Source of the DNA: Escherichia coli
Lineage (GTDB): Bacteria; Pseudomonadota; Gammaproteobacteria; Enterobacterales; Enterobacteriaceae
Strand: one strand, 5' to 3'
Assembly (NCBI RefSeq): GCF_024700885.2
Contig: NZ_CP117016.1
Length of the DNA: 64,000 nt
The translations under genes were made by a program, and so were the position numbers. Positions 1 through 42,700 of this stretch are shown here, piece after piece; the stretch's first letter is position 1, and the number at the start of each line of letters is the position of its first letter. The notes beneath the pieces were generated by a model. It made no database searches. It worked only from the letters and a program-made list of their open reading frames with translations, and was not told the DNA's origin.

Positions 1-350
1 GCTGCAAGGAACATAGTGTAGGTTGCCATATGCGAGGCAGGGAAAAAAAGTGTACAACCACCAATATACAGCGTCAGGCCAATTAAAATTGCCACCTTAT
101 AACTGGTCTTTTTAATCACAAGGGATGCTGGTATTGCAATTAAAAAATAACCTCCATAAAATGCGCTCTGCACCAATGCTGAAGCAAAGTTACTTAGCGA
201 AAATACACTTTTGAATTGAGTGATTAATATGTCATTTAATGCAGCTGCGCATCCCCATAGCGGGAATAAACACGATAACAAAATAAACTGGAACAAGGGA
301 GTCTTATTCAGATATCCATCAGGCATCTGAATGATGTTTTTATCGTTCAT
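1..350 (-). CDS. deoP: Deoxyribose permease (MFS, FucP-like), N-terminal part; gene continues past window start
   Basis: Minus-strand ATG at 350 gives MNDKNIIQMPDGYLNKTPLFQFILLSCLFPLWG..., FucP-like TM segments; lies 27 bp downstream of deoK. Confidence 0.65.
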   Translation of the reverse strand, partial: MNDKNIIQMPDGYLNKTPLFQFILLSCLFPLWGCAAALNDILITQFKSVFSLSNFASALVQSAFYGGYFLIAIPASLVIKKTSYKVAILIGLTLYIGGCTLFFPASHMATYTMFLA

Positions 351-377
351 AGTGCTACCTTTAACTGTGCAGGATGA

Positions 378-1298
378 TTATTCGTTTAAGGTTAAAAATT
401 CATTAAATTGTTCAATACTCGGATAAGATGATTGCGTACCTTTCCCTGTGACGCTGAAAGCGGCAAAGAGAGCGGCTTTTTTCAAAGCGGCTTCAACATC
501 ACCGCTTTGAACATAATAATGGGAAAAGCAACCAATAAATGCGTCACCAGCGCCACTAGTATCAACAGCATTTACTTTGAATGCAGGAACATGGACTTCC
601 TGATCGCGGGTCATCCATAATGCGCCTTTTTCGCTCATGGTAACAATAATATTGTTCAGCCCTTTATCAACTAACGAACGTGCGGCCAAACGAATATGAT
701 CATAAGTATCAACCGACATACCGGTTAATATTTCCAGTTCTGTTTCATTCGGGATAAAGAAATCACATTTGCAGGCATAAGACATATCTAACTCACGCAA
801 TGCCGGAGCCGGATTTAATAACACTTCAATACCATTTATCTTACCAAACTCAATCGCGTGGTAAACTGTTTCCAGTTGAACTTCCAGTTGTAAAACGATC
901 AATTTGCATTTTTTCAGATCTTCTGCAGCTCGATCGATATCTTCCGGGGAAAGAAATTTATTCGCTCCCTTAATTATTAATATACTATTGCTCGAGTTGG
1001 CATTAACAAAGATCGGTGCAACACCACTGCTGGTACAGGGGACCTTCTCAACATAAGTGGTATTAATTCCCCATGATTCAAGATTACGAATAGTATTATC
1101 CGCAAAAATATCATCACCTACTTTAGTCAGCATCAGGACTTTTGAATTCAATTTAGCCGCCGCCACCGCTTGATTAGCACCTTTCCCACCACATCCGATT
1201 TTGAAGGCAGGTGCTTCCAGAGTTTCTCCTTCTTTAGGCATCTGATTAGTGTAAGTAATGAGATCCACCATATTGGAACCAATAACTGCAATGTCCAT
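378..1298 (-). CDS. deoK: Deoxyribokinase, ribokinase/PfkB family (306 aa)
   Basis: MDIAVIGSNMVD... with GG motif (KIGCGGKGANQA) and C-terminal DTSGAGDAF anion-hole motif; start taken at internal ATG with AGAGG RBS. Confidence 0.8.
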   Translation of the reverse strand: MDIAVIGSNMVDLITYTNQMPKEGETLEAPAFKIGCGGKGANQAVAAAKLNSKVLMLTKVGDDIFADNTIRNLESWGINTTYVEKVPCTSSGVAPIFVNANSSNSILIIKGANKFLSPEDIDRAAEDLKKCKLIVLQLEVQLETVYHAIEFGKINGIEVLLNPAPALRELDMSYACKCDFFIPNETELEILTGMSVDTYDHIRLAARSLVDKGLNNIIVTMSEKGALWMTRDQEVHVPAFKVNAVDTSGAGDAFIGCFSHYYVQSGDVEAALKKAALFAAFSVTGKGTQSSYPSIEQFNEFLTLNE

Positions 1299-1603
1299 TT
1301 CACTACCTCTTATAAACTTTCGCATAACAATGGTATTTAAATAACATTAGCATGTTACTTTTGCATCATTTGTGACTGAGATCGCGATTAGCACATCAAC
1401 CCGATGTTTATTTAATAGACTTCCAGTCTCATCACTCAGGCCAACACTATCTAATCATAAGCAACCTAACAAGATTAGTGCCCAAAACTCAGCAGCCTAT
1501 ACCCTTTTCATTTCAAAGGGTCGGTCGTATAGTATGGTAATGAAAACAATGTTTACTAACGCCAAAATGTTATTTTTATAACATTCTTACGGAGAGAGAG
1601 TTG

Positions 1604-2386
1604 ATGGAAACGAAGCAAAAAGAGCGTATCCGACGTTTGATGGAACTGCTTAAGAAAACTGACAGAATCCATTTGAAAGACGCAGCGCGAATGCTGGAAG
1701 TTTCTGTAATGACTATTCGTCGCGATCTCCATCAGGAAGATGAACCTCTGCCACTGACCCTACTGGGTGGCTATATTGTAATGGTGAATAAACCCGCGCC
1801 ATCCATGCCAGTAATCCATGACGTTCCAAAAAATCATCGTGATGACTTACCTATTGCAATTCTGGCTGCCGGAATGGTTAATGAAAATGATCTGATCTTC
1901 TTTGATAATGGCCAGGAGATACCACTCGTTATAAGCATGATCCCGGATGCAATCACCTTCACCGGCATCTGTTACTCACATCGCGTCTTTGTTGCGTTGA
2001 ATGAAAAGCCTAATGTAACAGCAATACTTTGTGGTGGTACGTATCGTGCCAGAAGTGATGCTTTTTACGATGCCAGTAACTCTTCGCCATTAGACTCTCT
2101 CAATCCGCGAAAAATATTTATTTCCGCCAGCGGTGTGCATAATCACTTTGGCGTCAGCTGGTTTAACCCTGAAGATCTTGCCACTAAGCGTAAAGCGATG
2201 AACCGTGGACTACGGAAAATTTTGCTCGCCCGCCACGCGTTGTTCGATGAAGTGGCCTCTGCCAGCCTTGCACCGATCTCTGCATTTGACGTTCTGATTA
2301 GCGATCGTCCGTTACCGGCAGATTATGTTACGCACTGCCAGAATGGTTCTGTAAAGATCATTACACCTGATTCAGAAGACGAATGA
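1604..2386 (+). CDS. deoQ: DeoR-family transcriptional regulator, divergent from deoK
   Basis: N-terminal HTH (RIRRLMELLKKTDRIHLKDAARMLEVSVMTIRRDL) plus sugar-binding-type C-domain; GGAGAGAG RBS before ATG 1604. Confidence 0.75.
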   Translation: METKQKERIRRLMELLKKTDRIHLKDAARMLEVSVMTIRRDLHQEDEPLPLTLLGGYIVMVNKPAPSMPVIHDVPKNHRDDLPIAILAAGMVNENDLIFFDNGQEIPLVISMIPDAITFTGICYSHRVFVALNEKPNVTAILCGGTYRARSDAFYDASNSSPLDSLNPRKIFISASGVHNHFGVSWFNPEDLATKRKAMNRGLRKILLARHALFDEVASASLAPISAFDVLISDRPLPADYVTHCQNGSVKIITPDSEDE

Positions 2387-3431
2387 CTTACTGAAAAAAC
2401 ACCACAATCTTGTTAAACATCGTCGGATTGGACTGATTACGTTGCACTTTCACCACATATTCCAGCTTATCTATTTGGCTTATCACCTACTCCAGACGCT
2501 GGTCATCCTTGACCAGTAGCCAGATATGGCTTTTGTCGCAGTCCTGAATCGGCAGGCAGAGAATGTCTTCAACGTTAAGAGCGCGACGGGCAAAAGCCCA
2601 CAAAGGTGAGTCATTACACCCGGATGGTAAACAGGCACTTCCTTGTTGTAGAAGCCGTTATATTGCCCATAATGTCTGGGTTTTTAATGCATACTGGGTA
2701 ACAACCGGACGAATCTTCGAATATCACTGGCGCTGCCAGCCGGTTTGAATTCATCTCACAACCCTGCATAGAGCGAATCTCCTGCCTGCACGTCACTCCA
2801 CTCCATGGTATCAACTTCACACTCTTTATCTGCGGCTAGCTTCAGCCACCAGATAAGCATCGACTATGAAAGATGAGCCATGACAACATAACGTTGGTAA
2901 CGCTCTGACGCCTTAATGGAAGATGCCTGCCACCATAGGGAATGTAAACGACTGAAGTGTGGCCTTTAATGCCGTGAACGGCTCATGGTCTCCTGGCACG
3001 GTTGCCGCCCCAACCTGTAACAACATTCCACAGTACAATGTCTGCCAGAGTCAGAGCCTCCCATGCTTGTTGTAGTAACTCTACCAGTTACGAACATCCT
3101 TCCTCAAAATTGTTGTCATATCTCGCATGGAAGAAAAGATCCTGGCTAAGGAGCAACACACAACGTATTGCGGAACTTGCATATTTTTCCTGTAACTAGT
3201 GTATTACCACATATGGTAATAGCTACCTGTGTGGTTTCGCTGGATAGCAAGGGGATTTATTCGCAAGTAAAATGCCTGATAAAATACACGAATCTAGTAA
3301 TCATCAATATTTACTCTGGTCGAATGACGCGTGAAAGTGGACGGCCAACAGACGCAGTCAGTGATCTACAGCCTGTTGAATAAAACCCCGGATGCTTCCC
3401 CCGATTCTGCAAGTAATACTTCGGTTATTTG

Positions 3432-3537
3432 CACTATTTTATCCCTGTTGAATTTGGTTAAGCCGGTGCAGACGCGCCGGGAAACGCACACCTGAACCGG
3501 CACAATAAAATACAATACAACCCCCTGTTACTGGAGA
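3432..3537. repeat. 106-bp sequence, identical second copy at 17603-17708
   Basis: Exact match read by eye between the two loci. Confidence 0.85.
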
Positions 3538-3544
3538 AATGCCT

Positions 3545-3838
3545 GCGCCGGGGTCCGATATGGCAGTATTGTTGCAGCCTGCGGCATGGCTCAGGGGATG
3601 GATTTGATGGGCAATATGGCTCCGTTTATTCTGCGTGGTGTCACGCTGAAAGGGATTGATAGCGTCATGTTCGCGAAAGAGAAAAGAGCAGCAATCTGGC
3701 AACAGGCGGTATAGTATTTGCCAGAGTCCAGAATGGATAGTCTCACTACCGTTTATCCGCTCAGTGACGCCATCACTGTGGCTGAAAAACTTCTGAGTGG
3801 CGGAATTCGCGGTCGTGCAGTCATTCAATATAGCTAAT
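3545..3838 (+). pseudogene. C-terminal fragment of a YhdH/AcuI-like quinone oxidoreductase
   Basis: Translation ...VAACGMAQGMDLMGNMAPFILRGVTLKGIDSVMFAKEKRAAIWQQAV(stop)...LSGGIRGRAVIQYS matches the MDR oxidoreductase C-terminus; no N-terminal part, internal stop. Confidence 0.55.
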
Positions 3839-3894
3839 TAGATGGATGCCGAGCTCAGGCTTAGTATAATAAGTTTTAGGGGCTGCGGCCCCTT

Positions 3895-9609: not shown

Positions 9610-10554
9610 TCAAGGGTACGGGTCCGCTTCGTTTGATTTGCGTGTTTTTAACAATTTTAAAACCCAGACATACTGTTCCGGATGTGGCCCCACCAAAATT
9701 TCCACTGTTTTGTTCATTTGTCGGGCAATCATTTTATTGTCCGCGCTGGCAATGCAAGCATCCATTGGTGGCCGAATTTCAATAGTCAGGAGATGTTTTT
9801 TTTCATCATAAACCGGGAAAAGTGGTATAATCATAGCCTGACTGATGTTCATCAGACGTCCAATGATTGGTAATGTCGCTTTATAGGTCGCAAAAAAATC
9901 AGCAAATTCACTGTATTCAGGACCATGATCCTGATCTGGGAGGTAATATCCCCAGTATCCCTGGCGTACTGACTGAATAAATGGTTTTATCCCATCCTCC
10001 CGGGCATGTAAGCGCCCCCCGAATTTACGCCGTACTGAATTCCAGACATAATCAATCACTGGATTTCGTTGCTGATGAAACATGGCGGCCATTTTTTTTC
10101 CCTGAGCTGCCAGCAACATTGCAGGAATATCCACGCTCCAGCCATGGGGAACCAGAAAAATCACATTTCTATTATTGTGTCGAATTTCCTCAAGAATTTC
10201 GAGGCCTTTCCAGAACACTCGTTTCTGGAACTTTTCCGGACCACGAATTGCCAGTTCTGCCATCATCACTATGGATTGCAATGCTGTGGCAAACATTTTG
10301 TCGACAATTATTTCCCGTTCTGTATCACTCTTTTCTGGGAAACAAAGCGATAAATTAATCGTCGCCCTGCGACGAGCTTTTTTGCTCAATCTGCCCACCC
10401 AACGCCCTATTTTTGCCAAGACAGGATCTCTGAATGAAGGGGGAAACATTGAAATACCTGCAATCATTCCCAAAAGGAACCATGTAGACCAGTAAACAGG
10501 GGAAAGGTAATTTTTCTTAAATTCAGGAATAAACTCAGATTTATATTTTTTCAT
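9610..10554 (-). CDS. Lipid A secondary acyltransferase, LpxM/MsbB family (msbB2-like paralog)
   Basis: Lauroyl/myristoyl acyltransferase motifs (FLVPHGWSVD, YLPDQDHGPE); virK fragment immediately upstream as in shf-virK-msbB2 modules. Confidence 0.8.
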   Translation of the reverse strand: MKKYKSEFIPEFKKNYLSPVYWSTWFLLGMIAGISMFPPSFRDPVLAKIGRWVGRLSKKARRRATINLSLCFPEKSDTEREIIVDKMFATALQSIVMMAELAIRGPEKFQKRVFWKGLEILEEIRHNNRNVIFLVPHGWSVDIPAMLLAAQGKKMAAMFHQQRNPVIDYVWNSVRRKFGGRLHAREDGIKPFIQSVRQGYWGYYLPDQDHGPEYSEFADFFATYKATLPIIGRLMNISQAMIIPLFPVYDEKKHLLTIEIRPPMDACIASADNKMIARQMNKTVEILVGPHPEQYVWVLKLLKTRKSNEADPYP

Positions 10555-10618
10555 TATTTAGTGCGAATGCCTCTACCAAAATTATCATTACTGTTTTATT
10601 CAGAGAATACATCAAACC

Positions 10619-11233
10619 TTAATTTAAATTCTGATGTTCTGAGTGTACAGGATATGCATCCAAAGAGCGGATAGTAGTTTCATGGATATAATCCAGCAAA
10701 GCGTATCGTTTTCGGTACTCAGAGCGTTTTTTACTGGCTATATCGCTTAGCGGCTTTCGAATCACCTGGGTTGGTAATCTGTACCAGTCACCACAGGTTT
10801 TTCCTGCTACAGACTCCCAGAAATCACTATAGACCGCAACAAAGGTTTTGCGTTTCTGATACCAGTATCTCAATTGCCGGAAAACATGACTGTGCTCACT
10901 GACTGCCAGACACTCAGAGATATTGCAAGCTTTCATCAACGCACAAAATGCTTCAAAAATAATCCGTTTTGGGAAAATCCCATAACAGGCCCGGGTTGCG
11001 CACCGAATAACATCAGGTCCGGTATTTTTAGGGGCTCCCTGTAATCCGCCAATAAAAGCAATGTGTCCATTTTGAGTCAGAATGACTGAAAATGTTAACC
11101 GGGCAATAACTGTTTTATTGTAAAACAATGACAACATCAACTCTCCTTCCCGGTCAAAACCACTGGGAGAACACTGGATATCAAAATTCTCTCCATCTTT
11201 CCCGATGAATTGGACTAATGATACCGATTTTTG
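10619..11233 (-). pseudogene. virK: virK-like (DUF535) gene, C-terminal part only, cut by IS1
   Basis: Open frame runs from the IS1 boundary (...FIGKDGENFDIQCSP...) to the stop at 10619; N-terminal half absent. Confidence 0.55.
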
Positions 11234-25108: not shown

Positions 25109-25227
25109 ACACTCTGCCAGGGGAAATGCCTGATTACATTGCGTTAACCAACTGAAAACATGACACAAACACCTCATGCCCCTCCTGTTTCTCTTGCGTG
25201 ACTGCTCTGCTGTTAATAGAATAAAAC

Positions 25228-25263
25228 GATCGATAAAACAGGTATCGATCGTTACTATCGATC
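25228..25263 (+). promoter_or_regulatory. Three clustered GATC (Dam) sites in the flu leader: probable OxyR/Dam phase-variation switch
   Basis: GATC at 25228, 25247 and 25260, about 220 bp upstream of the flu ATG. Confidence 0.6.
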
Positions 25264-25480
25264 GTTTATAGTGGTTAATGGTCTGCGAAAAGGCAGCTGA
25301 ATCTCTTCATCATGCAGAACGGAATTGCACACAACGGACTGATACTTCTCTGGCGGATGAGAGAGGGGAAGCATTTATGTCCGGGAAAAACCACTTTATC
25401 TGACCATGCTGTTTTGTACCTGCCGGTATCCACATTTGTGGGTACCGGCTTTTTTATTCACCCTCTGTAAGGAAAAGCTG

Positions 25481-28327
25481 ATGAAACGACATCTGAACAC
25501 CAGCTACAGGCTGGTATGGAATCACATTACGGGCACCCTGGTGGTGGCTTCCGAACTGGCGCGCTCACGGGGAAAACGCACCGGTGTGGCGGTTGCGCTG
25601 TCTCTTGCTGCTGTCACGTCAGTCCCGGTACTGGCTGCTGACACGGTCGTACAGGCGGGAGAAACCGTGAGCGGCGGAACACTGACAAATCATGACAACC
25701 AGATTGTCTTCGGTACGGCCAACGGAATGACCATCAGTACCGGTCTGGAGTATGGGCCGGATAACGAGGCCAATACCGGCGGACAATGGATACAAAATGG
25801 CGGTATCGCCAACAACACTACTGTCACCGGTGGTGGTCTTCAGAGAGTGAATGCCGGAGGAAGCGTTTCAGACACGGTTATCAGTGCCGGAGGCGGACAG
25901 AGCCTTCAGGGGCAGGCAGTGAACACCACTCTGAACGGCGGTGAGCAGTGGGTACATGAAGGCGGGATTGCAACGGGTACCGTCATTAATGAGAAGGGCT
26001 GGCAGGCCGTCAAATCCGGCGCAATGGCAACCGACACGGTTGTGAATACCGGCGCGGAAGGGGGACCGGATGCAGAAAATGGTGATACCGGGCAGTTTGT
26101 TCGCGGAAATGCCGTACGTACCACTATCAATGAAAATGGTCGTCAGATTGTGGCTGCTGAAGGAACAGCAAATACCACTGTGGTTTATGCCGGCGGCGAC
26201 CAGACGGTACACGGGCATGCGCTGGATACCACACTGAATGGCGGTTACCAGTATGTGCACAACGGAGGCACAGCCTCTGACACGGTTGTAAACAGTGACG
26301 GCTGGCAGATTGTCAAGGAAGGTGGTCTGGCGGATTTCACCACCGTTAACCAGAAAGGCAAACTGCAGGTGAACGCCGGTGGTACAGCCACGAATGTCAC
26401 CCTGAAGCAGGGAGGCGCACTGGTCACCAGTACGGCGGCAACCGTCACCGGCAGCAACCGTCTGGGCAATTTCACTGTGGAAAACGGTAATGCTGACGGT
26501 GTTGTTCTGGAGTCCGGTGGTCGCCTGGATGTACTGGAGGGCCATTCAGCCTGGAAAACACTGGTGGATGACGGCGGAACCCTGGCAGTGTCTGCCGGTG
26601 GTAAGGCAACAGATGTCACCATGACATCCGGTAGTGCCCTGATTGCAGACAGTGGTGCCACTGTTGAGGGGACCAATGCCAGCGGTAAGTTCAGTATTGA
26701 TGGCACATCCGGTCAGGCCAGCGGACTGCTGCTGGAAAATGGCGGCAGCTTTACGGTTAATGCCGGAGGACTGGCCAGCAACACCACTGTCGGACATCGT
26801 GGAACACTGACGCTGGCTGCCGGGGGAAGTCTGAGTGGCAGAACACAGCTCAGTAAAGGTGCCAGCATGGTACTGAATGGCGATGTGGTCAGTACCGGCG
26901 ATATTGTTAACGCAGGGGAGATTCGCTTTGATAATCAGACGACACCGGATGCCGCGCTGAGCCGTGCTGTTGCAAAAGGCGACTCCCCGGTAACGTTCCA
27001 TAAACTGACCACCAGTAACCTCACCGGTCAGGGTGGCACCATCAATATGCGTGTTCGCCTTGATGGCAGCAATACCTCTGACCAGCTGGTGATTAATGGT
27101 GGTCAGGCAACCGGCAAAACCTGGCTTGCGTTTACAAATGTCGGAAACAGTAACCTCGGGGTGGCAACCTCCGGACAGGGTATCCGGGTTGTGGATGCAC
27201 AGAATGGCGCCACCACAGAAGAAGGTGCGTTTGCCCTGAGTCGCCCGCTTCAGGCCGGCGCCTTTAACTACACCCTGAACCGTGACAGCGATGAAGACTG
27301 GTACCTGCGCAGTGAAAATGCTTATCGTGCTGAAGTCCCCCTGTATACATCCATGCTGACACAGGCAATGGACTATGACCGGATTCTGGCAGGCTCCCGC
27401 AGCCATCAGACCGGTGTAAACGGTGAAAATAACAGCGTCCGTCTCAGCATTCAGGGCGGTCATCTCGGTCACGATAACAACGGCGGTATTGCCCGTGGAG
27501 CCACGCCGGAAAGCAGCGGCAGCTATGGCTTCGTCCGTCTGGAGGGTGACCTGCTCAGAACAGAGGTTGCCGGTATGTCTCTGACGACAGGGGTGCATGG
27601 TGCCGCAGGCCATTCTTCCGTTGATGTTAAGGATGATGACGGTTCCCGCGCCGGCACGGTCCGGGATGATGCCGGCAGCCTGGGCGGATACCTGAATCTG
27701 ACACACACGTCCTCCGGCCTGTGGGCTGACATTGTGGCACAGGGAACCCGCCACAGCATGAAAGCGTCATCGGACAATAACGACTTCCGCGCCCGCGGCT
27801 GGGGCTGGCTGGGCTCACTGGAAACCGGTCTGCCCTTCAGTATCACTGACAACCTGATGCTGGAGCCACAACTGCAGTATACCTGGCAGGGACTTTCCCT
27901 GGATGACGGCCAGGATAACGCCGGTTATGTGAAGTTCGGGCATGGCAGTGCACAACATGTGCGTGCCGGTTTCCGTCTGGGCAGCCACAACGATATGAGC
28001 TTTGGTGAAGGCACCTCATCCCGTGACACCCTGCGCGACAGTGCAAAACACCGTGTGCGTGAACTGCCGGTGAACTGGTGGGTACAGCCTTCTGTTATCC
28101 GCACCTTCAGTTCCCGGGGTGACATGAGCATGGGGACAGCCGCCGCCGGCAGTAACATGACGTTCTCACCGTCCCGGAATGGCACGTCACTGGACCTGCA
28201 GGCCGGACTGGAAGCCCGTGTCCGGGAAAATATCACCCTGGGCGTTCAGGCCGGTTATGCCCACAGTGTCAGCGGCAGCAGCGCTGAAGGTTATAACGGT
28301 CAGGCCACGCTGAATGTGACTTTCTGA
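25481..28327 (+). CDS. flu: Antigen 43 autotransporter adhesin (948 aa)
   Basis: [35 protein letters not shown]... signal/passenger repeats and C-terminal beta-barrel ending ...GQATLNVTF. Confidence 0.9.
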
Positions 28328-33706: not shown

Positions 33707-36598
33707 ATGATTGGTACAACACCTTATCATGCGAAATATTTTGCGCATGAACTTTCCATTCTCCATTCAAACAATGGGGTGGACCGTCTGTCTCAATCGC
33801 TGTTTGATGCAAGCGTAGATCTAAATCCTCATCAAATTGAGGCGGCTCTTTTTGCTATTGAAAATCCGCTAAGCAAAGGTGTTGTGCTTGCCGATGAAGT
33901 TGGTTTAGGTAAAACCATTGAAGCGGGGTTAGTGCTTTGCCAGTTGTGGGCTGAAAGAAAACGTAAACTGTTGATCATTTGTCCTGCTTCACTGCGTCGC
34001 CAATGGGCGAGCGAGTTACAGGAAAAGTTCAATCTACCTTCTCAGGTGTTGGACGCGAAAACGTATAGCCAGCTTCAAAAAGAAGGGATCCATAATCCCT
34101 TAAATAATAAATCGATCACTATCATGTCATACCACTATGCTGCTCGGTTAGAAGAAAAATTGGTGGCTGAAATGTGGGATCTGGTTGTTATCGACGAAGC
34201 CCATAAACTGCGTAATGCTCATCGAGAAAGTAACAAAATGGGGCAAGCGTTAAAGCGTGCGCTTGATGGGCGGAAAAAATTACTACTGACCGCAACGCCT
34301 TTACAGAATTCGTTAATGGAACTGTATGGCATGTCGACGCTTATAGATGAACATACCTTCGGCGAAGTTAAAGCGTTCAGAAAGCAATATATGCAGGCAG
34401 ATAGCGATATTGCGGAGTTGAAGGGGCGATTGTCGCGTTTTATCAAACGAACTTTACGCAAGAATGTGCTGGAGTACATCAAGTATACAGAACGTAAAGC
34501 GATCACTATTCCTTTCTATCCGAGCGAACAGGAGCAGGATCTTTATGAACGCGTACAAAAATTGCTTGAACGTGAGGATAGCTATGCCTTACCAAAACGA
34601 CACCGGCATCTGACGGGGCTTATTCTCAGAAAGCTACTTTCCTCAAGTACGAAAGCTGTATTGAATAACTTGCAGATCCTTAAGAGTCGTTTAGAAAGGT
34701 TAAAGCTGGAAGGTATCGTTGAAGATGATATGAACATCATCCAACAGATCATAATGGATGACGATCTTGAAGATGACATCGTGGAAGATGCCGAATCAGT
34801 GGCTTTAGATACCGAGTGCAAAGTTGTCGATTCAGACGCGCTTCAGGCAGAAATCAATGAGCTGGAATCACTCATTGTCAAAGCAGAACAGATTGGCACT
34901 GATACCAAATCAAAAGAGTTGCTTTCTGGCCTGGAGCAAGGTTTTGCACAGCTTGCCGAAATGGGGGCTGCAAAAAAAGTCATCATCTTCACGGAGTCAA
35001 TGCGAACTCAACAGTATCTTGCACATTTTCTGGAAAACAATGGCTACCAGGGGAAAGTAGTAACCTTTAGTGGCACAAACAATACACCGCAGGCAAACAA
35101 GATCTACCAGCAATGGCGCGAGGAATATCAGGGATCTTCTCGTATTACCGGGTCGGCGCAAATTGATAAACGCTCGGCTTTGATCGACCACTTCAAAGAT
35201 CATGCTGAAATCATGATAGCTACAGAAGCTGCAGCTGAAGGGGTGAACCTGCAATTTTGTTCGCTACTGATCAATTACGATTTACCCTGGAACCCACAAC
35301 GCATTGAACAGCGTATTGGACGTTGTCACCGATACGGGCAAAAATTTGATGTGGTTGTTATTAACTTCCTCAATCAGCGAAACCAGGCCGATCAACGCGT
35401 TCTTGAACTCTTAACTGAAAAGTTCAGCCTGTTTGATGGCGTGTTTGGCGCATCGGATAGTGTGCTTGGCAGCATAGAAAATGGTGTGGATTTTGAAAAA
35501 AGGATCCAGTCAATTTATGAGTCATGCCGTACCCCCGAGGAGATAGAGCTGGCTTTTGAAAGGTTGCAGAAAGAGCTGGAAGATGAAATCAATCTCAAGA
35601 TGCAGAAGACGCAAGAACAGTTGCTTGAGCATTTTGATGAAGATATTCACGATATCCTTAAAATAAGGCTTGATGAAGCTCGGGAGCGTCTGGATAAAGT
35701 CGGTCGTTGGTTTTGGGCCGTGACCTGTCAGCAGCTCAAACAATATGCTGATTTTGATCATGAGCATCATCGTTTCACTTTACGTGAATCAGTAAATGAA
35801 CTGCCTGTCGGGCAGTACCAGCTGTTGCGCAAAGATGGTAGGCAAAATAGTGCGTTACAAATGCAGGATCACCACAGTTTTGCATATCGGATCAATCATC
35901 CGCTGGGTGAGTACGTCATTGAGGGGGCTAAGGTCCAGGAGACGAAAACAGCTGAAGTCATCTTCGATTACAGTAACCACACAACGAAAGTCTCGGTGGC
36001 TGAGCAGCTGAAAGGGCAATCAGGGTGGTTAACACTAAATTTGCTTACTGTTGATGCGTTTAACAGGCAGCAATTTTTAGTCTTTACCGCAAAAACTGAC
36101 AACGGACGTGTGGTAGATGGTGAAGCTTGTAAACGTCTGTTCAACTTGTCTGCAATAACCAACGAAAAGCTGGATAATTCGGCAAGTTCAGATGCATTAC
36201 CTGATGACTTGATCTTACTCAAGAACAGGCAAATTGACGCCAGACTTGCGGAAGTTCTGGAGCAGAACAATGTCCTTTTTGAAGCTGAAAGAGATAAGCT
36301 GGAAAAATGGGCTGAAGATATGATCTTTGCGGCGGAAGAAGCATTACGCGATACCAAAATGCAAATCAAGTCGTTAAAGCGAGAAGCCAGACTGGCGCAA
36401 TCGATGGAAGAACAAAAGCAAAACCAGGAAAAGCTGAAGCTACTGGAACGGCAGCAGAAACGCCAACGTATGGAAATTTTTGACATTGAAGATGAGATCG
36501 CTGACAAGCGGGATGAACTCATCAGTGCCCTTGAAGAGCGGATGAAGCAAAAAACGGATATCACCGAGCTTTTTTCCATCCGCTGGAAAGTTATTTAA
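33707..36598 (+). CDS. SNF2-family DEAH-box ATPase/helicase (963 aa) with C-terminal coiled-coil tail
   Basis: Walker A DEVGLGKT (33893-33916), motif II VVIDEAHKLRN (DEAH 34193-34204), motif III LLLTATPLQNS, helicase-C NLQFCSLLINYDLPWNPQRIEQRIGRCHRYGQ; AGAGAGA RBS. Confidence 0.85.
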   Translation: MIGTTPYHAKYFAHELSILHSNNGVDRLSQSLFDASVDLNPHQIEAALFAIENPLSKGVVLADEVGLGKTIEAGLVLCQLWAERKRKLLIICPASLRRQWASELQEKFNLPSQVLDAKTYSQLQKEGIHNPLNNKSITIMSYHYAARLEEKLVAEMWDLVVIDEAHKLRNAHRESNKMGQALKRALDGRKKLLLTATPLQNSLMELYGMSTLIDEHTFGEVKAFRKQYMQADSDIAELKGRLSRFIKRTLRKNVLEYIKYTERKAITIPFYPSEQEQDLYERVQKLLEREDSYALPKRHRHLTGLILRKLLSSSTKAVLNNLQILKSRLERLKLEGIVEDDMNIIQQIIMDDDLEDDIVEDAESVALDTECKVVDSDALQAEINELESLIVKAEQIGTDTKSKELLSGLEQGFAQLAEMGAAKKVIIFTESMRTQQYLAHFLENNGYQGKVVTFSGTNNTPQANKIYQQWREEYQGSSRITGSAQIDKRSALIDHFKDHAEIMIATEAAAEGVNLQFCSLLINYDLPWNPQRIEQRIGRCHRYGQKFDVVVINFLNQRNQADQRVLELLTEKFSLFDGVFGASDSVLGSIENGVDFEKRIQSIYESCRTPEEIELAFERLQKELEDEINLKMQKTQEQLLEHFDEDIHDILKIRLDEARERLDKVGRWFWAVTCQQLKQYADFDHEHHRFTLRESVNELPVGQYQLLRKDGRQNSALQMQDHHSFAYRINHPLGEYVIEGAKVQETKTAEVIFDYSNHTTKVSVAEQLKGQSGWLTLNLLTVDAFNRQQFLVFTAKTDNGRVVDGEACKRLFNLSAITNEKLDNSASSDALPDDLILLKNRQIDARLAEVLEQNNVLFEAERDKLEKWAEDMIFAAEEALRDTKMQIKSLKREARLAQSMEEQKQNQEKLKLLERQQKRQRMEIFDIEDEIADKRDELISALEERMKQKTDITELFSIRWKVI

Positions 36599-36603
36599 TT
36601 GAT

Positions 36604-39600
36604 TTGAAAGAGAAAATAATGAGTAAGTACAACGAATTAGTTAAGAAGCTAAAAGAAATTTTTCAGATTGATCGACCAGAACTGGATTTCGGTATTTATC
36701 GTATTTTAAATGCACGTGCTGATGAAATTAACGACTATCTGGATAATAAGCTGAAGGCCAAAATCCAGTCTGCGCTGGCGGATGCAGGAAATGCCAATAA
36801 ATCAGAATTAGAACATCAGTTGCAACTGACAATAAAAGCGGCAACTGATGCGGGTGTGGACCCTGCTGATAGCCCGAAAGTACAGGAGCTTAAAAAGCAA
36901 CTGGCGGCTATGGCATCCGGAGCAAATGAGCATGAAAATGCAGTATTTTCCCATCTGCTGACTTTCTTTTCGCGTTATTATGACAACGGCGATTTTATCA
37001 GCAAACGCCGTTATAAAGGTAATACCTACGCCATCCCTTATTCTGGCGAAGAAGTGATGTTGCACTGGGCAAATAAGGACCAGTACTACATTAAAAGCGG
37101 TGAAAACTTTGCTAATTATTCATTTAAATTAGATGATGGTCGTAAAGTTAGCTTTAAATTGCTCGCAGCGGACACAGCAAAAGATAACCGTAAAGATAAT
37201 GAATTAGATCGCTGCTTTGTACTTATTGAGCCGCATGTTCGTACCAAAATTGATGAAGAAGGCGATGAGTACGAACAAGAATATAAGCCAGTAGAAGTGG
37301 TGAAAACTTCATCTGTGGTTGACGGTAAACTCGTTGAAACAGAAGAGTTAGTTATTCACTTCGAATATAAGGCCATGAAAAAGGGCACTAAGCAGGATGC
37401 TTTAGTGCAGTCCGCTATTTCAACAATTCTGGCTGATAAAACAGTTCAACAGCATTGGGTTGATCTTGCTAAACGTGCGCCAACAGAAAAAAATCCGTCA
37501 CGTACAGAGTTGGAGCGTCATCTTACAACTTATACCCAGCGTAATACAGCAGACTACTTTATTCATAAAGATCTCGGTGGTTTTTTAACTAACGAACTGG
37601 ATTTTTATATTAAAAATGAAGTAATGAATCTCGATAATGTGCAAAATGCAGAAGTGTTTGCCAATATTGAGAAACAATTGCGCATGATTCAATGTTTGCG
37701 TACTGTTGCGCTGGAACTCATTGCATTTTTGGCACAAATTGAGAATTTCCAGAAGAAACTTTGGACTAAGAAGAAGTTTGTTGTTTCAAGTAATTACTAT
37801 ATTACTATGGACAAAATAAGTTCAGAGTTTTACAGTGAAATAATTAATAATGAAAAAATAGTCCAAGAATGGATTGAATTAGGCATCTTAGATGAGAAGC
37901 CATCTACCTCTGATGTGGAGTTGCTCAAGTTTGCAACAGTTAATTTATCTCATTTAAACGGAGATCTAAGGAAAAAAATATTAAATAGTATCAATGATAT
38001 TGACGATAATGTTGATGGCGTTTTTATTAATGGTGATAATTATCAAGCGTTAAATCTTTTGAAGAAAAAATATAATTCCGTAATTGATTGTGTCCATATA
38101 GATCCACCATATAACACAGATACTAGTGGTTTTTTATATAAAAATAGCTTTAAGCATTCAAGTTGGCTGAGTATGATGGATAGCCGTTTGCTTTTTGTTA
38201 AAAATTTACTCAGTGAAAATGGTGTATTTTTTTGTCATATTGATGAAAATGAATATGAGCGACTTTATTTAATTAATAAACAGTTAGGTCTTATCGATGC
38301 AGGGACAATTATTTGGGATAAACGCAATCCCATGAATGGTGGTAGTGGCATTGCGATTCAACATGAATATACTACTTGTTTTACAAAGAACATGATTTCT
38401 ATTAATAAGAAAAATGAGAATGTATTAGAAATACTCGAATATGCAAAATTAATTAAGAATAAATATCCTGTAATTAACAGTGAAGCAAAGAAAAAATTTT
38501 ATGATTGGGTAACAAAGAATAAAAAACTTACTGGAGGTGAACAAGCTTACAAATATATCGATGAGAAAGGTCGAGTGTACCAGAGTGTCAGCCTCCGTGC
38601 CCCAGAGCCAAGGACTGACAAGAAATTCTATATACCATTAATTCATCCAGTTACCGGGAAACCATGCGCTATGCCACCAAATGGTTTTTCTCGTACCCCA
38701 GAAACATTAAAAGATATGATGGATAAGGGGGATATACTATTTGGTGTTGATGAAACAACGCAACCTAGACAGAAAGCATATTTATATGCTGACGCTAAAA
38801 AGCAAATAACATCAATAATTCAGGATGCTAAAAAAGGAAAAACTCAAACAACTCATCTTGGAATTGATTTTCCTTATTGTCACTCAACTTCTTTATATAA
38901 TTATTTAATTGGGAGTGCATCTCATAATAAAAATGAGATAATATTAGATTTTTTTGCTGGTTCAGGAACAAGTGGCCACTCAGTCATAGAGTTGAATCGT
39001 AAGGATGCGGGTTCAAGGAAATATATACTTGTTGAACAGGGGGAGTATGCACAAAATGTAACTTTAAGCAGGTTGAGAAAAGTTATATTCAGTAGCAATT
39101 GGAAAGATGGTAAAGCTATGGATTCAACGACAGGCTCATCTCATATACTTAAAGTTATGAAAATAGAAAGTTACGAAGATGTATTAAATAGCCTTCGATT
39201 TGAACAACAAAAAGAAATAAAAGATCTTTTTGATACAGTGAATGAATCAGTAGCAAATGAGTATTTAATAAAATATATGCTTGAAACAGAAAGCAAAGGT
39301 TCACTACTCAGTACTGATAATTTCAAAAAACCATTTAACTACGAAATGGATATTGCGACGGATTCCGCCGGTGCCACTGAGCGTAAAAACATCGATTTAG
39401 TTGAAACTTTCAACTATCTCATTGGTTTACATGTGAAATCCATCGAATCCAATATCGAACGTGGCTATGTGCGTGTTGAAGGAATGCTACCAACAGGCGA
39501 GCGTACCCTTATTCTGTGGCGCGATTGCGACAAGATCGGTTATGAAGAATTGAATAAATATGCCAACCGATTCGATTTATATGCAAAAGAAAACACGTTC

Positions 39601-39741
39601 GACGTTATCTATATCAATGGCGATCATAACTTACCTACCGCCTTTACTGTTGATGAAGAAGACGGCGAGATTGTTCGTAGCCTGAAAATCCGCCAGATCG
39701 AACCTGAATTCTTGAACCTGATGTTTGCGGAGGAGGTTTAA
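36604..39741 (+). CDS. Large beta-class DNA methyltransferase (N6-adenine/N4-cytosine type; 1045 aa) with about 490-aa N-terminal extension
   Basis: Motif IV HIDPPYNTD (38101-38112) precedes motif I ILDFFAGSGTSG (38951-38977), the order seen in Type III Mod; starts 6 bp after the SNF2 stop. Confidence 0.8.
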   Translation: MKEKIMSKYNELVKKLKEIFQIDRPELDFGIYRILNARADEINDYLDNKLKAKIQSALADAGNANKSELEHQLQLTIKAATDAGVDPADSPKVQELKKQLAAMASGANEHENAVFSHLLTFFSRYYDNGDFISKRRYKGNTYAIPYSGEEVMLHWANKDQYYIKSGENFANYSFKLDDGRKVSFKLLAADTAKDNRKDNELDRCFVLIEPHVRTKIDEEGDEYEQEYKPVEVVKTSSVVDGKLVETEELVIHFEYKAMKKGTKQDALVQSAISTILADKTVQQHWVDLAKRAPTEKNPSRTELERHLTTYTQRNTADYFIHKDLGGFLTNELDFYIKNEVMNLDNVQNAEVFANIEKQLRMIQCLRTVALELIAFLAQIENFQKKLWTKKKFVVSSNYYITMDKISSEFYSEIINNEKIVQEWIELGILDEKPSTSDVELLKFATVNLSHLNGDLRKKILNSINDIDDNVDGVFINGDNYQALNLLKKKYNSVIDCVHIDPPYNTDTSGFLYKNSFKHSSWLSMMDSRLLFVKNLLSENGVFFCHIDENEYERLYLINKQLGLIDAGTIIWDKRNPMNGGSGIAIQHEYTTCFTKNMISINKKNENVLEILEYAKLIKNKYPVINSEAKKKFYDWVTKNKKLTGGEQAYKYIDEKGRVYQSVSLRAPEPRTDKKFYIPLIHPVTGKPCAMPPNGFSRTPETLKDMMDKGDILFGVDETTQPRQKAYLYADAKKQITSIIQDAKKGKTQTTHLGIDFPYCHSTSLYNYLIGSASHNKNEIILDFFAGSGTSGHSVIELNRKDAGSRKYILVEQGEYAQNVTLSRLRKVIFSSNWKDGKAMDSTTGSSHILKVMKIESYEDVLNSLRFEQQKEIKDLFDTVNESVANEYLIKYMLETESKGSLLSTDNFKKPFNYEMDIATDSAGATERKNIDLVETFNYLIGLHVKSIESNIERGYVRVEGMLPTGERTLILWRDCDKIGYEELNKYANRFDLYAKENTFDVIYINGDHNLPTAFTVDEEDGEIVRSLKIRQIEPEFLNLMFAEEV

Positions 39742-39743
39742 GA

Positions 39744-42700
39744 ATGGCTAAAAAACCGACCACCGGTAAAGCTGTTAAAAAAGAGACAAACAGCAAACTG
39801 AGCTTTCATAAGCAACTGGTTTTGAACCGCTTTATGTTCCATTTTTTTAAAGATGGCACATTGCAAGGTTTAAAAAATCGGTTAGGTGAAGATCGCTTTG
39901 AAGGCATCCATGAAGATGGCCAAAGCTTGTTCTTCCATGAGCTGAGTAACTATTTATTCGAGGTCGATCTTATCGATCTCGATGAACTGCGTCGTTACGA
40001 TCTCAATATCGTACAGCACTGGCAGCAGATAACTGAGCACCGTAATCGCAAAGAAGACACCGTGCTGAATATGAAATATTTTCAGTACTTGTCGCTTCTG
40101 TTTACCGAGATCTACCTGGACTGGTACTTCAATCGTAAACAGCAATTACTCGATGGGCTAAATAACGAGCTGGCAGCATACAATGCTGAAAATGATAAAA
40201 CAGCAAAAGACCGGGCTAATCAGTTCAAATCATACATTCTAGATGACTTGAATAAACTTGCATACTGGAACGCTACCGGTTCGGGTAAAACACTGCTATT
40301 GCATGTCAATATTTTGCAATATTTACATTATTTCCAGAACGGTAATACCCACCATTACCCGGATAAAATCATCCTGCTTACGCCGGATGAACGCCTGTCG
40401 AAGCAACATTTAGATGAGCTGGAAAACTCAGGATTTACCCAATACCAGTTATTCGATAAGAGTAAATCTGCGCCCTTCAAAGGCACGATTGAAGTTATTG
40501 ATATCAATAAACTTGCCGATGAAATGGGTGACAAAACTGTTGCCGTTGAGGCATTTGAAGGCAACAATCTGGTTCTGATTGATGAAGGGCATAAAGGCAC
40601 CGGAAGTGCTGCTGGTGCCTGGATGCGCCGTCGTGACAAATTAACACGTGACGGATTTGCGTTTGAATATTCAGCAACTTTTGGCCAGGCAGTAGCCGGT
40701 GGCAATAATGTTGAGGCAGTTGAAACAGAAATTCAGAAGAAAAAAGCAAAGCTGCTTTTTGAAACAACGGCCTTAGGTAAACTGAACGAAGAAGAGTTAG
40801 CGCAAATAGCATTAACCAGCGAAGAAAAACGAGATGCGCGTATTCAGGCGACGCGAGAGGTCTATGGAAAATCGATTCTGTTCGATTACTCCTATAAATT
40901 CTTCTATGAGGATGGTTATGGTAAAGAATCACTGATTCTTAACCTTAATCCTGAAGAGGATAAAAAAGATGAGCGTCGGTATGAGTATTTTACCGCGTGT
41001 TTGCTCAGCTTTTATCAGCAACAATATTTATTCAATAAGAATAAAGAAAAATTAAGTGAATTTAATATCGAAAAACCGCTGTGGGTTTTTGTCGGTAATA
41101 CGGTAAGTGGTGAAGATTCAGACATTCACGCAGTATTGCGTTTTTTAGCATGGTTTTTAAACCACGAAACGCAGGCAAAAGCGTGGATTAACGATCTCAT
41201 TAAAAATAAAGCGCGAATCCTCGATACCAAAGAGCGTAACATTTTTGAAAATCGCTTTACTGCACTAATGAACGCTCCGGAAGATATCTACGCAGATATT
41301 CTTTCTCGCTTGTTTAACACCACTCACTCTGGTCAGCGACTGCGAGTTCTGAATTTAATAGGCAGTAAAGGTGAACTGGCATTACAGGTTGGTGAGGCCG
41401 AACCGTTTGGCCTTATCAATATTGGTGATGCACCGTCTCTTTACAAAATGTGTGAAGAGGATACGACATTTGATTATCAGAGAGATGATTTTGCAAAGTC
41501 ACTCTTTCATACGTTAAATGACAAAGACTCGCGACTACATATTTTGATCGGCTCGCGAAAATTTACTGAAGGCTGGAGCAGTTGGCGCGTCTCAACGATG
41601 GGATTGCTCAATATGGGCCGTGGAGAAGGTTCACAGATCATTCAGTTATTTGGTCGTGGCGTACGCCTTAAAGGTCGCAATTATTCTTTGAAACGCAGTA
41701 CACCCGGTGAGCGTCCGAAAGGGTTGCATCTGGAAAAATTAGAGACACTGAATGTATTCGGTGTACGTGCCGATTACATGGCAACCTTTAAACAATACCT
41801 GGAAGATGAAGGGATTACGCCAAGTGACGAGATCCTTGAGCTGAATTTTGAAACTCGGCCAAATATGCCAGCAACCAGGCTTAAAACACTTAAGCTTAAA
41901 GATGGTTATAAAGATAATCAAAGACTCGGCTTTAAACGTGTCTATTTTCCCGAATTGTATGAAGTTCCTGCTGATTTTCAGGGGAAAATTAAGCAGCCGC
42001 ATATTAAGCTGGACTTATACCCGAAACTTGAGTCGATTGATACCAGCAGAAAAGGGGACAATACTCCGGTTAACGTGCGCAATGAAGCGAAGTTAGATTA
42101 TAAAATCATTAGTGCATTTGATTTTGATCGGCTTTATCTCGCCATTCAGAATTATAAACTACAACGCGGCTGGTCAAATTTACGTGTGGATAAACAACGT
42201 TTGATCGACTTTTGTACCGGTAAGACAAAGATCGGAAATAGTTGGTATACCCTTTTGATTCCAGCTTCAGAGCTTGAGATTAAGCAATATGCAGATATTG
42301 CTAAGCAGGAAGATATTATGCTTCGTCTGCTGACTGATTATACTGATCGCTTTTACAACACCTTGAAAAATGCTTATGAAGGTCAGTTTTATGAAGTCAC
42401 GCAGGTGAAAGAAGATGATCCTGGTATGATCAAAATGTACCATTTCGAGATCGAAGAAACTGATGATGGGTTGGCTTATGCCAGTCGGCTGGAACAATTA
42501 CAACAATTGGTCATCGACGGCGAAATCGGTAAAGCAAAATCCTGGAGTGCATCCGGGATGGTTGCTATTACCTTTGATAAACATCTCTATTACCCGCTTC
42601 TTTCGATTGAAAAAAATGCCAATATACCGCTAAAAATGCGACCGGCAGCACTTGGTGCGCCAAGCGAGATTACTTTTGTTCAGGATCTTCAGTCTTTTGT

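Follow-up and report, generated by a model that had tools for sequence, protein, structure and literature searches.

An accessory deoxyribose utilisation locus on an Escherichia coli genomic island, with gene stubs that may mark its former chromosomal site

The left end of the Escherichia coli DNA analysed here, a stretch of 64 kb that we call the window, carries what we take, with a probability of roughly 90%, to be the accessory locus deoQ / deoK-deoP(-deoX) by which island-bearing E. coli use 2-deoxy-D-ribose. Its proposed substrate, induction and fitness role are carried over from the Salmonella orthologues and from work on E. coli AL862. The locus is the published deoK operon and in that sense already known: it represents a recognised niche-adaptation trait, deoxyribose use being reported as commoner in pathogenic E. 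coli, and raises no new question of wide interest. Its recognition does correct the misleading RefSeq names rbsK and fucP. The flanking stubs of ilvN and uhpA, for their part, would record the former site of the cluster, and would slightly revise the accepted story of its origin.

Results

Gene content of the locus

A ribokinase-family kinase and a FucP-like permease had been described in an earlier note on this DNA as being read divergently from a DeoR-family regulator, and this arrangement is indeed present (Table 1). The genes deoK and deoP are co-directional with 27 bp between them, and deoQ diverges from them across 305 bp. About a quarter of deoP is visible in positions 1-2386, the remainder lying to the left of the window, as does deoX, the operon's fourth gene, whose product is aldose-1-epimerase-like. 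In profile searches the deoP fragment matches the FucP models TIGR00885 (3.4e-32) and NF007524 (2.4e-30); its 116 residues reach 112 bits against a FucP equivalog cut-off of 280 that is set for the full-length protein. The fragment shows clear kinship with the family, which does not by itself fix the substrate. RefSeq labels the three genes in general terms ('rbsK ribokinase', 'fucP' and 'DeoR family regulator').

Table 1. Features of the deo locus and its control region, in window coordinates
Feature	Coordinates	Strand	Description
deoP, 5' part	1..350	minus	First 116 codons of a 438-aa FucP-like MFS deoxyribose permease (putative); ATG at 350
deoK, deoxyribokinase (putative)	378..1298	minus	Intact, 306 aa, PfkB/ribokinase fold; PF00294 2.7e-62; coordinates follow the RefSeq start, a longer ORF extends to 1325
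Divergent deoK-deoQ control region	1299..1603		305 bp; conserved blocks between unalignable sequence (12-taxon alignment)
Operator-like palindrome adjoining deoK	1329..1348		AATGGTATTTAAATAACATT; core TGGTA-N6-TAACA at 1331-1346; flanking bases invariant in 12 taxa
Second palindrome	1342-1357		TAACATTAGCATGTTA; overlaps the deoK-side palindrome
CRP-like site	1368..1389		TGTGA at 1371-1375, N6, TCGCG at 1382-1386
Promoter-like site for deoQ	1505..1533	plus	TTTTCA-17-TATAGT, from a consensus scan; GTATAGT (-10) invariant in 12 taxa
Operator-like palindrome adjoining deoQ	1566..1585		AATGTTATTTTTATAACATT; core TGTTA-N6-TAACA at 1568-1583; exact pattern match
deoQ, DeoR-family repressor (putative)	1604..2386	plus	260 aa; HTH_DeoR PF08220 and DeoRC PF00455
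ilvN pseudogene stub	2388..2628	minus	3' 240 nt; frameshift and in-frame stop; 1 base from the deoQ stop codon

Identity of the kinase and the regulator

Could these genes instead form an ordinary system for the uptake and phosphorylation of ribose (or L-fucose) under a DeoR-family regulator, unrelated to deoxyribose, as the RefSeq gene names rbsK and fucP would imply? The kinase shares 292 of 306 residues (95%) with a protein of S. enterica subsp. salamae named deoxyribokinase in UniProt, and is likewise 95% identical to the deoK product of S. enterica subsp. diarizonae, an orthologue that sits in the same four-gene arrangement. Its identity to K-12 RbsK is only 37%, so that the nearest relative is not rbsK, in agreement with the earlier reading of the gene. 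A ribose or fucose system could appeal to the broader bacterial ribokinase model TIGR02152, which DeoK passes (366 bits against a cut-off of 299.65) and from which the RefSeq name rbsK derives, and to the ribokinases that are the best matches among solved structures; on the RbsK-specific equivalog NF008353, in contrast, DeoK scores 249.5 bits, under the cut-off of 341, and its genomic context is deoQ and deoP, not rbsDACBKR.

Alignment of the two kinases places Asp12, Lys39, Asn42, Glu139 and Asp252 of DeoK at D16, K43, N46, E143 and D255 of RbsK, and DeoK retains the catalytic Asp252, within its GAGD motif, together with the sugar-binding residues. In place of RbsK Asn14, which contacts the 2'-OH, DeoK carries Met10, and this substitution is said to have been described by Tourneux et al. 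2000 as discriminating deoxyribose from ribose. Human and mouse ribokinase, the best PDB matches of DeoK, also carry Met there, so Met10 is not exclusive to deoxyribokinases. STM3793, the DeoK of Salmonella, is needed for growth on deoxyribose, strains without deoK failing to grow, and it phosphorylates ribose as well (PMC13432705). The E. coli operon is described as giving deoxyribose use in two publications (PMC5382810, PMC7545054), and rbsDACBK and fucPIK are already part of the E. coli core genome. Weighing these observations, we regard a ribose or fucose system as extremely improbable, and deoxyribose as the probable substrate of the locus.

The regulator is 84% identical to its Salmonella enterica orthologue. 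It reaches 230.2 bits on the DeoR equivalog NF007961, under the cut-off of 244, and shares 38-57% identity with proteins named DeoR, on which grounds we consider DeoQ a paralogue of DeoR; its C-terminal domain aligns to the E. coli DeoR structure 7l6l.

Control region and proposed pathway

Conservation within the region between deoK and deoQ is concentrated at several motifs. Both TTTGTGAC and GATCGCGA of the CRP-like site are invariant in 12 of 12 aligned taxa, the assignment to CRP following from the consensus TGTGA-N6-TCACA, and the deoQ-side palindrome keeps its arms ATGTT and AACAT in 12 taxa. The DeoR-type palindrome pattern has three matches in the 64 kb, against 2.15 expected by chance, and two of the three fall within the 305-bp region. 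Motif conservation nominates the operator and CRP sites as candidates. An Rfam scan of the whole window returned nothing in or near the locus, its sole match being an IS102 RNA at 25226-25462, and the 1.27-kb stretch to the right of the ilvN stub held no annotation of interest.

According to the pathway that we propose, DeoP would act as a FucP-like proton symporter taking up deoxyribose, with assistance from the mutarotase-like DeoX. DeoK would then convert deoxyribose, at the expense of ATP, to deoxyribose-5-phosphate, and the aldolase DeoC, whose gene belongs to the core genome (5423 of 5426 E. coli genomes), would split this intermediate into glyceraldehyde-3-phosphate and acetaldehyde. 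DeoQ would bind two TGTTA-N6-TAACA palindromes and repress both divergent promoters until released by deoxyribose, and the CRP-like site would subject deoKPX to catabolite control. The published accounts credit the deoK operon with deoxyribose use and with promoting gut colonisation, and place it beside vpe on islands (PMC5382810, PMC6455142, PMC7545054).

Distribution and island setting

The earlier note had further supposed that the locus occurs in some E. coli, that K-12 lacks it and that the left part of the window was acquired, and each of these suppositions is borne out. Of 5426 complete E. coli genomes, 1594 (29%) carry the deo locus. In K-12 ilvN abuts uhpA with nothing between them, and no deoQ match was found in that genome. 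Each of the four E. coli copies inspected is located on an IS-rich island, and three have the vpe sugar-transport operon with them, as published (PMC5382810, PMC6455142, PMC7545054).

In the window itself the left ~45 kb consists of island DNA, and the core genes nanM, nanC, fim, gntP and uxu start near 45.9 kb. Elements and remnants of IS3, IS66, IS110, IS1 and IS21 flank the locus, and the cargo includes vpe, Ag43 and lpxM/virK. The GC content is 41% over 1-2386 as compared with 49% where the window consists of core DNA. No tRNA gene was found inside the 64 kb; the integration site of the island and its integrase lie outside the window. With its variable presence, surrounding IS elements and pseudogenes, deviant GC and fitness or virulence cargo, the locus fits a genomic (pathogenicity) island.

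Such surroundings, rich in IS elements and pseudogenes, raise the question of whether the locus is a relic in decay that has lost its function and no longer gives deoxyribose use. Individual copies have been damaged: strain CUVET21-37 matches positions 1-2700 at 100% identity and has an IS3-family element interrupting its deoP, and a metagenome contig (L091) bears a shortened deoQ of 227 aa. In the window, on the other hand, deoK and deoQ are full length and without internal stops. Strain MLI114, whose identity to the window is 99.997% (a single base and a single indel across the 64 kb), has intact copies of all four genes, among them deoX and a full-length deoP of 438 aa; this near identity is our reason for considering deoP and deoX intact in the source strain too. 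While the low GC3 of the cluster would be compatible with relaxed selection, the ratios of synonymous to non-synonymous differences between two E. coli allele classes (18:9 in deoX, 10:4 in deoP, 2:1 in deoK and 19:11 in deoQ) speak against decay, and the DeoK protein remains 95-97% identical to distant orthologues despite saturated dS, which indicates purifying selection. A relic is therefore very unlikely, and we retain the reading of a probably working deoxyribose locus.

Discussion

Where did the cluster come from? The deo module of E. coli is flanked by stubs of ilvN and uhpA, both of them dead. The ilvN stub, annotated as a pseudogene in RefSeq in the inspected E. coli copies, aligns by tblastn to residues 18-96 of IlvN and contains a stop codon within that stretch. 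Its identity is 91% with the native ilvN of E. coli and 73-82% with those of other genera (77% with Salmonella), and all 500 neighbour-joining bootstraps group it with the native E. coli gene, E. coli being the one Escherichia species included in the comparison. The stub and native E. coli ilvN share no unique derived bases (three columns are unique to E. coli, and 0 of these are shared), so that it is overall distance and bootstrap support that place the two together. Divergent E. coli records (90-95% identity) that could calibrate the ilvN tree were absent among the records listed. The uhpA stub was considered as a second marker of origin; it is real, but the 131 columns that can be aligned vary too little between genera to be informative, and no clade received bootstrap support.

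In the published view, E. coli received its deoK operon directly from Salmonella enterica. The two do agree in gene order and in having ilvN and uhpA as neighbours, and their DeoK proteins are 95% identical. The same arrangement recurs, however, in 36 enterobacterial loci and is therefore not a signature of Salmonella, and the agreement does not extend to the DNA. Compared with subsp. diarizonae, the one subspecies covered at DNA level, identity is 81% in deoK, 83% in deoP and 77% in deoQ, with saturated dS. The match to Salmonella proposed in the earlier note thus stands for protein sequence and gene order and fails for the DNA (~81% identity, synonymous sites saturated). Citrobacter is slightly nearer than Salmonella in deoK and deoP. 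The dS of the cluster to Citrobacter, Salmonella and Raoultella is at least 1.3 or saturated, that of the core flanks mostly 0.9-1.3, and the saturation with respect to Salmonella and Citrobacter argues against a recent import from Salmonella. The affinity of the ilvN stub to E. coli, and not to Salmonella, points in the same direction. Nor does any DeoQ homologue of 85-96% identity among 5.8 billion proteins bear the name of an organism other than E. coli. Direct transfer from Salmonella accordingly appears unlikely.

The search of the 5.8 billion proteins was also considered for traces of an intermediate donor lineage, and this candidate was rejected: it revealed a gap between the E. coli clusters of DeoQ (96-100%) and the next full-length homologues (at most 85%). 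Two single matches were likewise dismissed as donors. The 85% match (L089) comes from another genus, has the native arrangement and carries an ilvB 79% identical to that of K-12; the 87% match, on the metagenome contig L091, is the E. coli island copy with the shortened deoQ.

We favour, with moderate confidence, the capture of a ~5-kb chromosomal segment, reaching from within uhpA to within ilvN, into the island from an Escherichia-like chromosome, as opposed to a recent import from Salmonella. The ilvN stub would then be a relic of the ancestral chromosomal site of the cluster. Whether the deoK module (uhpA'-deoX-deoP-deoK-deoQ-'ilvN) is more specifically an old piece of the Escherichia lineage, cut from the ilvN-uhpA site and surviving only as island cargo, we consider an even bet. 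A chimeric query of deoQ joined to native ilvN-ilvB detected the deo cluster at the native ilvN-uhpA site in 0 of 5426 E. coli genomes, and if the module is such an old piece, the native-site copy has been lost from, or was never present in, all of them. It would also mean that a metabolic operon of a core site has turned into mobile accessory DNA and has since undergone strong AT drift at synonymous sites. The GC3 of the cluster is 34-47% versus 60-67% in the E. coli core flanks, and lies also below that of all close orthologues. Simple descent within Escherichia does not predict so low a value.

Comparison with known systems

The gene order deoQ / deoK-deoP is common to ~45 enterobacterial loci, including that of Salmonella enterica subsp. 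diarizonae. In 36 of these an intact ilvN adjoins deoQ, and the nine loci checked for both flanks all read ilvB-ilvN, deoQ / deoK-deoP-deoX, uhpA. The deoQKPX regulon of Salmonella enterica (deoK = STM3793), reportedly described by Tourneux et al. 2000 and Christensen et al. 2003, shares all four genes and their divergent layout with the E. coli locus. Its DeoK is likewise 306 aa long and is 95% identical, with Met10 in both, and the identities of DeoQ and DeoP are 84% and ~96%. Salmonella likewise has the conserved palindromes, the CRP-like site and the -10 box, as well as an ilvN adjoining deoQ; its deoK-deoQ intergenic region is said to measure 324 bp, as compared with 305 bp here. The two systems differ in their setting and in their DNA. 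Salmonella and 35 other enterobacterial loci are chromosomal with an intact ilvN, whereas the E. coli locus sits on a mobile island between dead ilvN and uhpA stubs; the clusters are 77-83% identical in DNA with saturated dS, and the E. coli cluster lies 10-21 points lower in GC3.

The deoK operon of E. coli pathogenicity islands (AL862 at pheV, ROD 40 of NCTC 86 and the LAC PAI of LEE-negative STEC) is the same locus. These islands likewise carry vpe (a LacI regulator and PTS IIA/IIB/IIC) alongside, are rich in IS elements and encode Ag43-type adhesins (PMC5382810, PMC6455142, PMC7545054). The present island abuts the nan-fim-gntP-uxu core region, that is, the leuX side of the chromosome, whereas that of AL862 lies at pheV, and, as a further difference, the stretch that was annotated showed no afa-8 cluster.

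Finally, RbsK, DeoR and FucP of K-12 belong to the same families as the products of the locus (PfkB ribokinase fold, DeoR helix-turn-helix with sensor domain, and FucP-type MFS), and share with them the catalytic Asp, the sugar-binding residues and, as candidate operators, DeoR-type palindromes. Unlike these core paralogues, the kinase and the regulator of the deo locus score below the core equivalog cut-offs, and DeoQ has an identity of about 40% to repressors of the DeoR type.

Identity of the locus

The left edge of the window carries deoQKPX, the deoxyribose-utilisation module known from E. coli islands, an already described locus that the earlier note identified correctly. Reading frames and profile matches uphold the arrangement proposed there, with a kinase and a FucP-like permease divergent from a DeoR-family regulator, the permease being only partial in the window: the visible deoP frame comprises 116 codons, about a quarter of the gene, begins with MNDKNIIQMPDGYLNKTPLFQF... 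in translation and is FucP-like (TIGR00885, 3.4e-32). Only 27 bp separate deoP from deoK, both on the minus strand, and 305 bp separate the pair from plus-strand deoQ. The deoK product, which would be nine residues longer if translated from the in-frame ATG upstream at 1325, belongs to the PfkB/ribokinase family (PF00294, 2.7e-62), and the deoQ product combines HTH_DeoR and DeoRC domains.

The reading as an accessory deoxyribose locus rather than a core kinase also stands. The kinase does not align best to rbsK: it is 95% identical (292/306, no gaps) to the UniProt 'Deoxyribokinase' of Salmonella enterica versus 37% to K-12 RbsK, and it scores above the broad NCBI ribokinase model (366 bits, cut-off 299.65) and below the RbsK-specific one (249.5 bits, cut-off 341). 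The sugar-binding and catalytic residues of RbsK are retained in the alignment (D12, K39, N42, E139 and D252 of DeoK), with the sole exception of Asn14, which is Met10 in DeoK. This is the position that, from the work of Tourneux et al. in 2000, reportedly tells deoxyribose from ribose; the kinase's best PDB matches, the ribokinases of human and mouse, have Met at this site too. DeoQ falls slightly below the DeoR equivalog cut-off (230 versus 244), shares 84% identity with its Salmonella orthologue and only about 40% with DeoR-type repressors, and is a DeoR paralogue. In Salmonella, DeoK is STM3793, in whose absence the bacterium cannot grow on deoxyribose (2026 paper, PMC13432705). Orthology and the literature together give high confidence in the predicted deoxyribose function of the module.

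Features of the module, its control region and its flanking stubs (window coordinates unless stated)
Feature	Position	Strand	Basis or remark
deoP, 5' part (permease)	ATG at 350, runs off left edge	minus	ORF listing, translation
deoK (kinase), 306 aa	378-1298	minus	ORF listing, RefSeq start
Palindrome AATGGTATTTAAATAACATT, deoK side	1329-1348		repeat search
Additional invariant block TAACATTAnCATGTTA	1342-1357		alignment
Putative CRP site, invariant block TTTGTGAC...GATCGCGA	1368-1389		alignment
Promoter-like site for deoQ, -10 GTATAGT (invariant)	1505-1533		alignment
Palindrome AATGTTATTTTTATAACATT, deoQ side, related to the deoK-side one	1566-1585		repeat search
deoQ (regulator), 260 aa	1604-2386	plus	ORF listing
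ilvN stub, last 240 nt	2388-2628		one base past deoQ stop; frameshift and CAG-to-TAG stop
uhpA promoter and first ~62 nt of uhpA	9875-10011 of L087 (copy of the window allele type)		left of deoX, outside window; 1-nt deletion

Control region

The cores of both palindromes between deoK and deoQ match TGTTA-N6-TAACA. The E. coli DeoR operator is TGTTAGAA.TTCTAACA, its outer arms having this same form. With at most one mismatch the pattern occurs three times in the 64 kb, two of these within the 305-bp region, against a chance expectation of 2.15 matches in the whole window. Alignment of the window with 11 other loci (the second E. coli allele, Citrobacter, Pseudocitrobacter, Salmonella diarizonae, Raoultella, Leclercia, Klebsiella indica, Enterobacter and Cedecea) reveals invariant blocks amid unalignable intergenic sequence, both palindromes among them. 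For Salmonella, Christensen et al. reportedly described in 2003 divergent promoters with DeoQ and DeoR repressing at tandem operators, and catabolite repression limited to deoKPX. The E. coli layout agrees with this scheme, and the regulators are predicted to bind here.

Ancestral site and origin

DeoK orthologues with 89-97% protein identity occur in many Enterobacteriaceae (scan of one genome per species), and 36 of those loci have deoQ directly next to an intact ilvN; the order ilvB-ilvN, deoQ / deoK-deoP-deoX, uhpA-uhpB holds in 9/9 loci checked on both flanks. In other genera the bases after the deoX stop are those found in K-12 after the ilvN stop; the presence/absence difference is clean. 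A junction of deoQ with an intact ilvN-ilvB occurs in 0 of 5426 E. coli genomes. The frameshift and stop in the ilvN stub are common to both E. coli allele classes, so there was a single capture event, and beyond the uhpA stub the sequence breaks into an IS3-like remnant. Some deoK-negative E. coli have other genes in the uhpA-ilvN gap, two unrelated hypothetical ones in strain B1.H1.1 (L002 3697-5924), which indicates that the ancestral deo site is itself a variable spot. An ORF-poor stretch of 1.27 kb (2629-3894) separates the ilvN stub from an acuR-like TetR regulator; its only annotation is a 108-nt 'alcohol dehydrogenase' fragment, and its pieces are scattered separately across many E. 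coli genomes.

What could be the source of the captured module? PMC5382810 quotes the view that the E. coli deoK operon was transferred from Salmonella. The ilvN stub, however, matches native E. coli ilvN at 91% identity versus 73-82% for eight other genera, and groups with the former in one clade in 100% of 500 NJ bootstraps; the strong conservation of the uhpA stub makes it uninformative. At the DNA level the deo genes are 72-84% identical to those of Citrobacter, Salmonella and Raoultella, and their dS (at least 1.3 or saturated) equals or exceeds the values that most of E. coli's flanking core genes give with these genera (mostly 0.9-1.3). Stub affinity and dS contradict a recent Salmonella transfer and favour an Escherichia-like donor chromosome, a moderately supported reading, with E. 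coli as the sole Escherichia species in the comparison. Alternatively, the stub may have been altered by early gene conversion from native ilvN. The island deo genes (1-2386; deoX and deoP in L004) have a GC3 of 34-47%, 10-21 points under their closest orthologues (Citrobacter, Salmonella, Raoultella) and 13-33 points under the core flanks ilvN, ilvB, uhpA and uhpB, despite which DeoK protein identity is still 95-97%. To account for such low GC3, either prolonged AT drift within the island gene pool or a lower-GC donor outside the sampled genomes would be required. This refinement of origin goes beyond the earlier note.

Allele classes

The window type and the class of strain E1 (L003 versus L087; window ~1-1400 versus 1400-2640) differ at 0-2 positions per 200 nt in the stretch that runs from the 3' half of deoP across deoK and its promoter. 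On both sides they are 3-9% diverged, namely in deoX and the 5' half of deoP on one side and in the deoQ-side intergenic sequence, deoQ and the ilvN stub on the other. The near-identical central stretch points to a recombination tract or a sweep. In all four deo genes synonymous changes exceed non-synonymous ones, and both classes therefore appear to be under purifying selection. In strain CUVET21-37, which shares 100% identity with the window across 1-2700, an IS3-family element splits deoP (L001 7392-8569), and the deoxyribose trait is presumably lost.

Island setting and distribution

E. coli MLI114, isolated from human stool in Mali, matches the entire 64-kb window at 99.997% identity and has deoX (337 aa), deoP (438 aa), deoK and deoQ all intact. 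Its module adjoins the vpe operon (LacI regulator and PTS IIA/IIB/IIC), and IS110, IS66, IS21, IS3 and IS1 elements surround both. The island cargo includes a second lpxM, a virK remnant, an Ag43-type adhesin, a YeeU/CbtA module and a large SNF2/methyltransferase/helicase cluster; to its right lie the core genes nanM, nanC, a truncated fim operon, gntP and uxuAB ... kptA.

Several of these elements deserve mention in their own right. IS3 and IS1 elements bracket the second, msbB-like lpxM and the truncated virK (9610-11233), an arrangement reminiscent of the virK-msbB2 module on Shigella virulence plasmids. The sole Rfam match in the window, an IS102 RNA (25226-25462, 74.6 bits), lies just upstream of a gene (~25481-28327) for an Ag43/Cah-family autotransporter. 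At the inner island edge, three large co-directional genes for an SNF2-related protein, a site-specific DNA methyltransferase and a DEAD/DEAH helicase (33707-44658) are followed by a phosphorothioated-DNA-binding restriction endonuclease, and the set looks like a phage-defence cluster. By the MLI114 annotation, IS1 adjoins a 5'-truncated fimD (49182-50787), and fimF, fimG and fimH remain; since fimB to fimC are apparently missing, production of type 1 fimbriae is unlikely.

Of 5426 complete E. coli genomes, 1594 carry the full locus and 5423 have deoC, which the second pathway step requires. The absence from K-12 that the earlier note asserted is confirmed: there is no deoQ match, and ilvN and uhpA lie 75 bp apart with nothing between. 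Its claim that the left part of the window was horizontally acquired is likewise borne out by IS-rich island DNA extending to ~45.6 kb. Published descriptions (PMC5382810, PMC6455142, PMC7545054) place a deoK operon beside vpe on islands, in AL862, in NCTC 86 (ROD 40) and in the LAC PAI of STEC. The setting found here agrees with them exactly.
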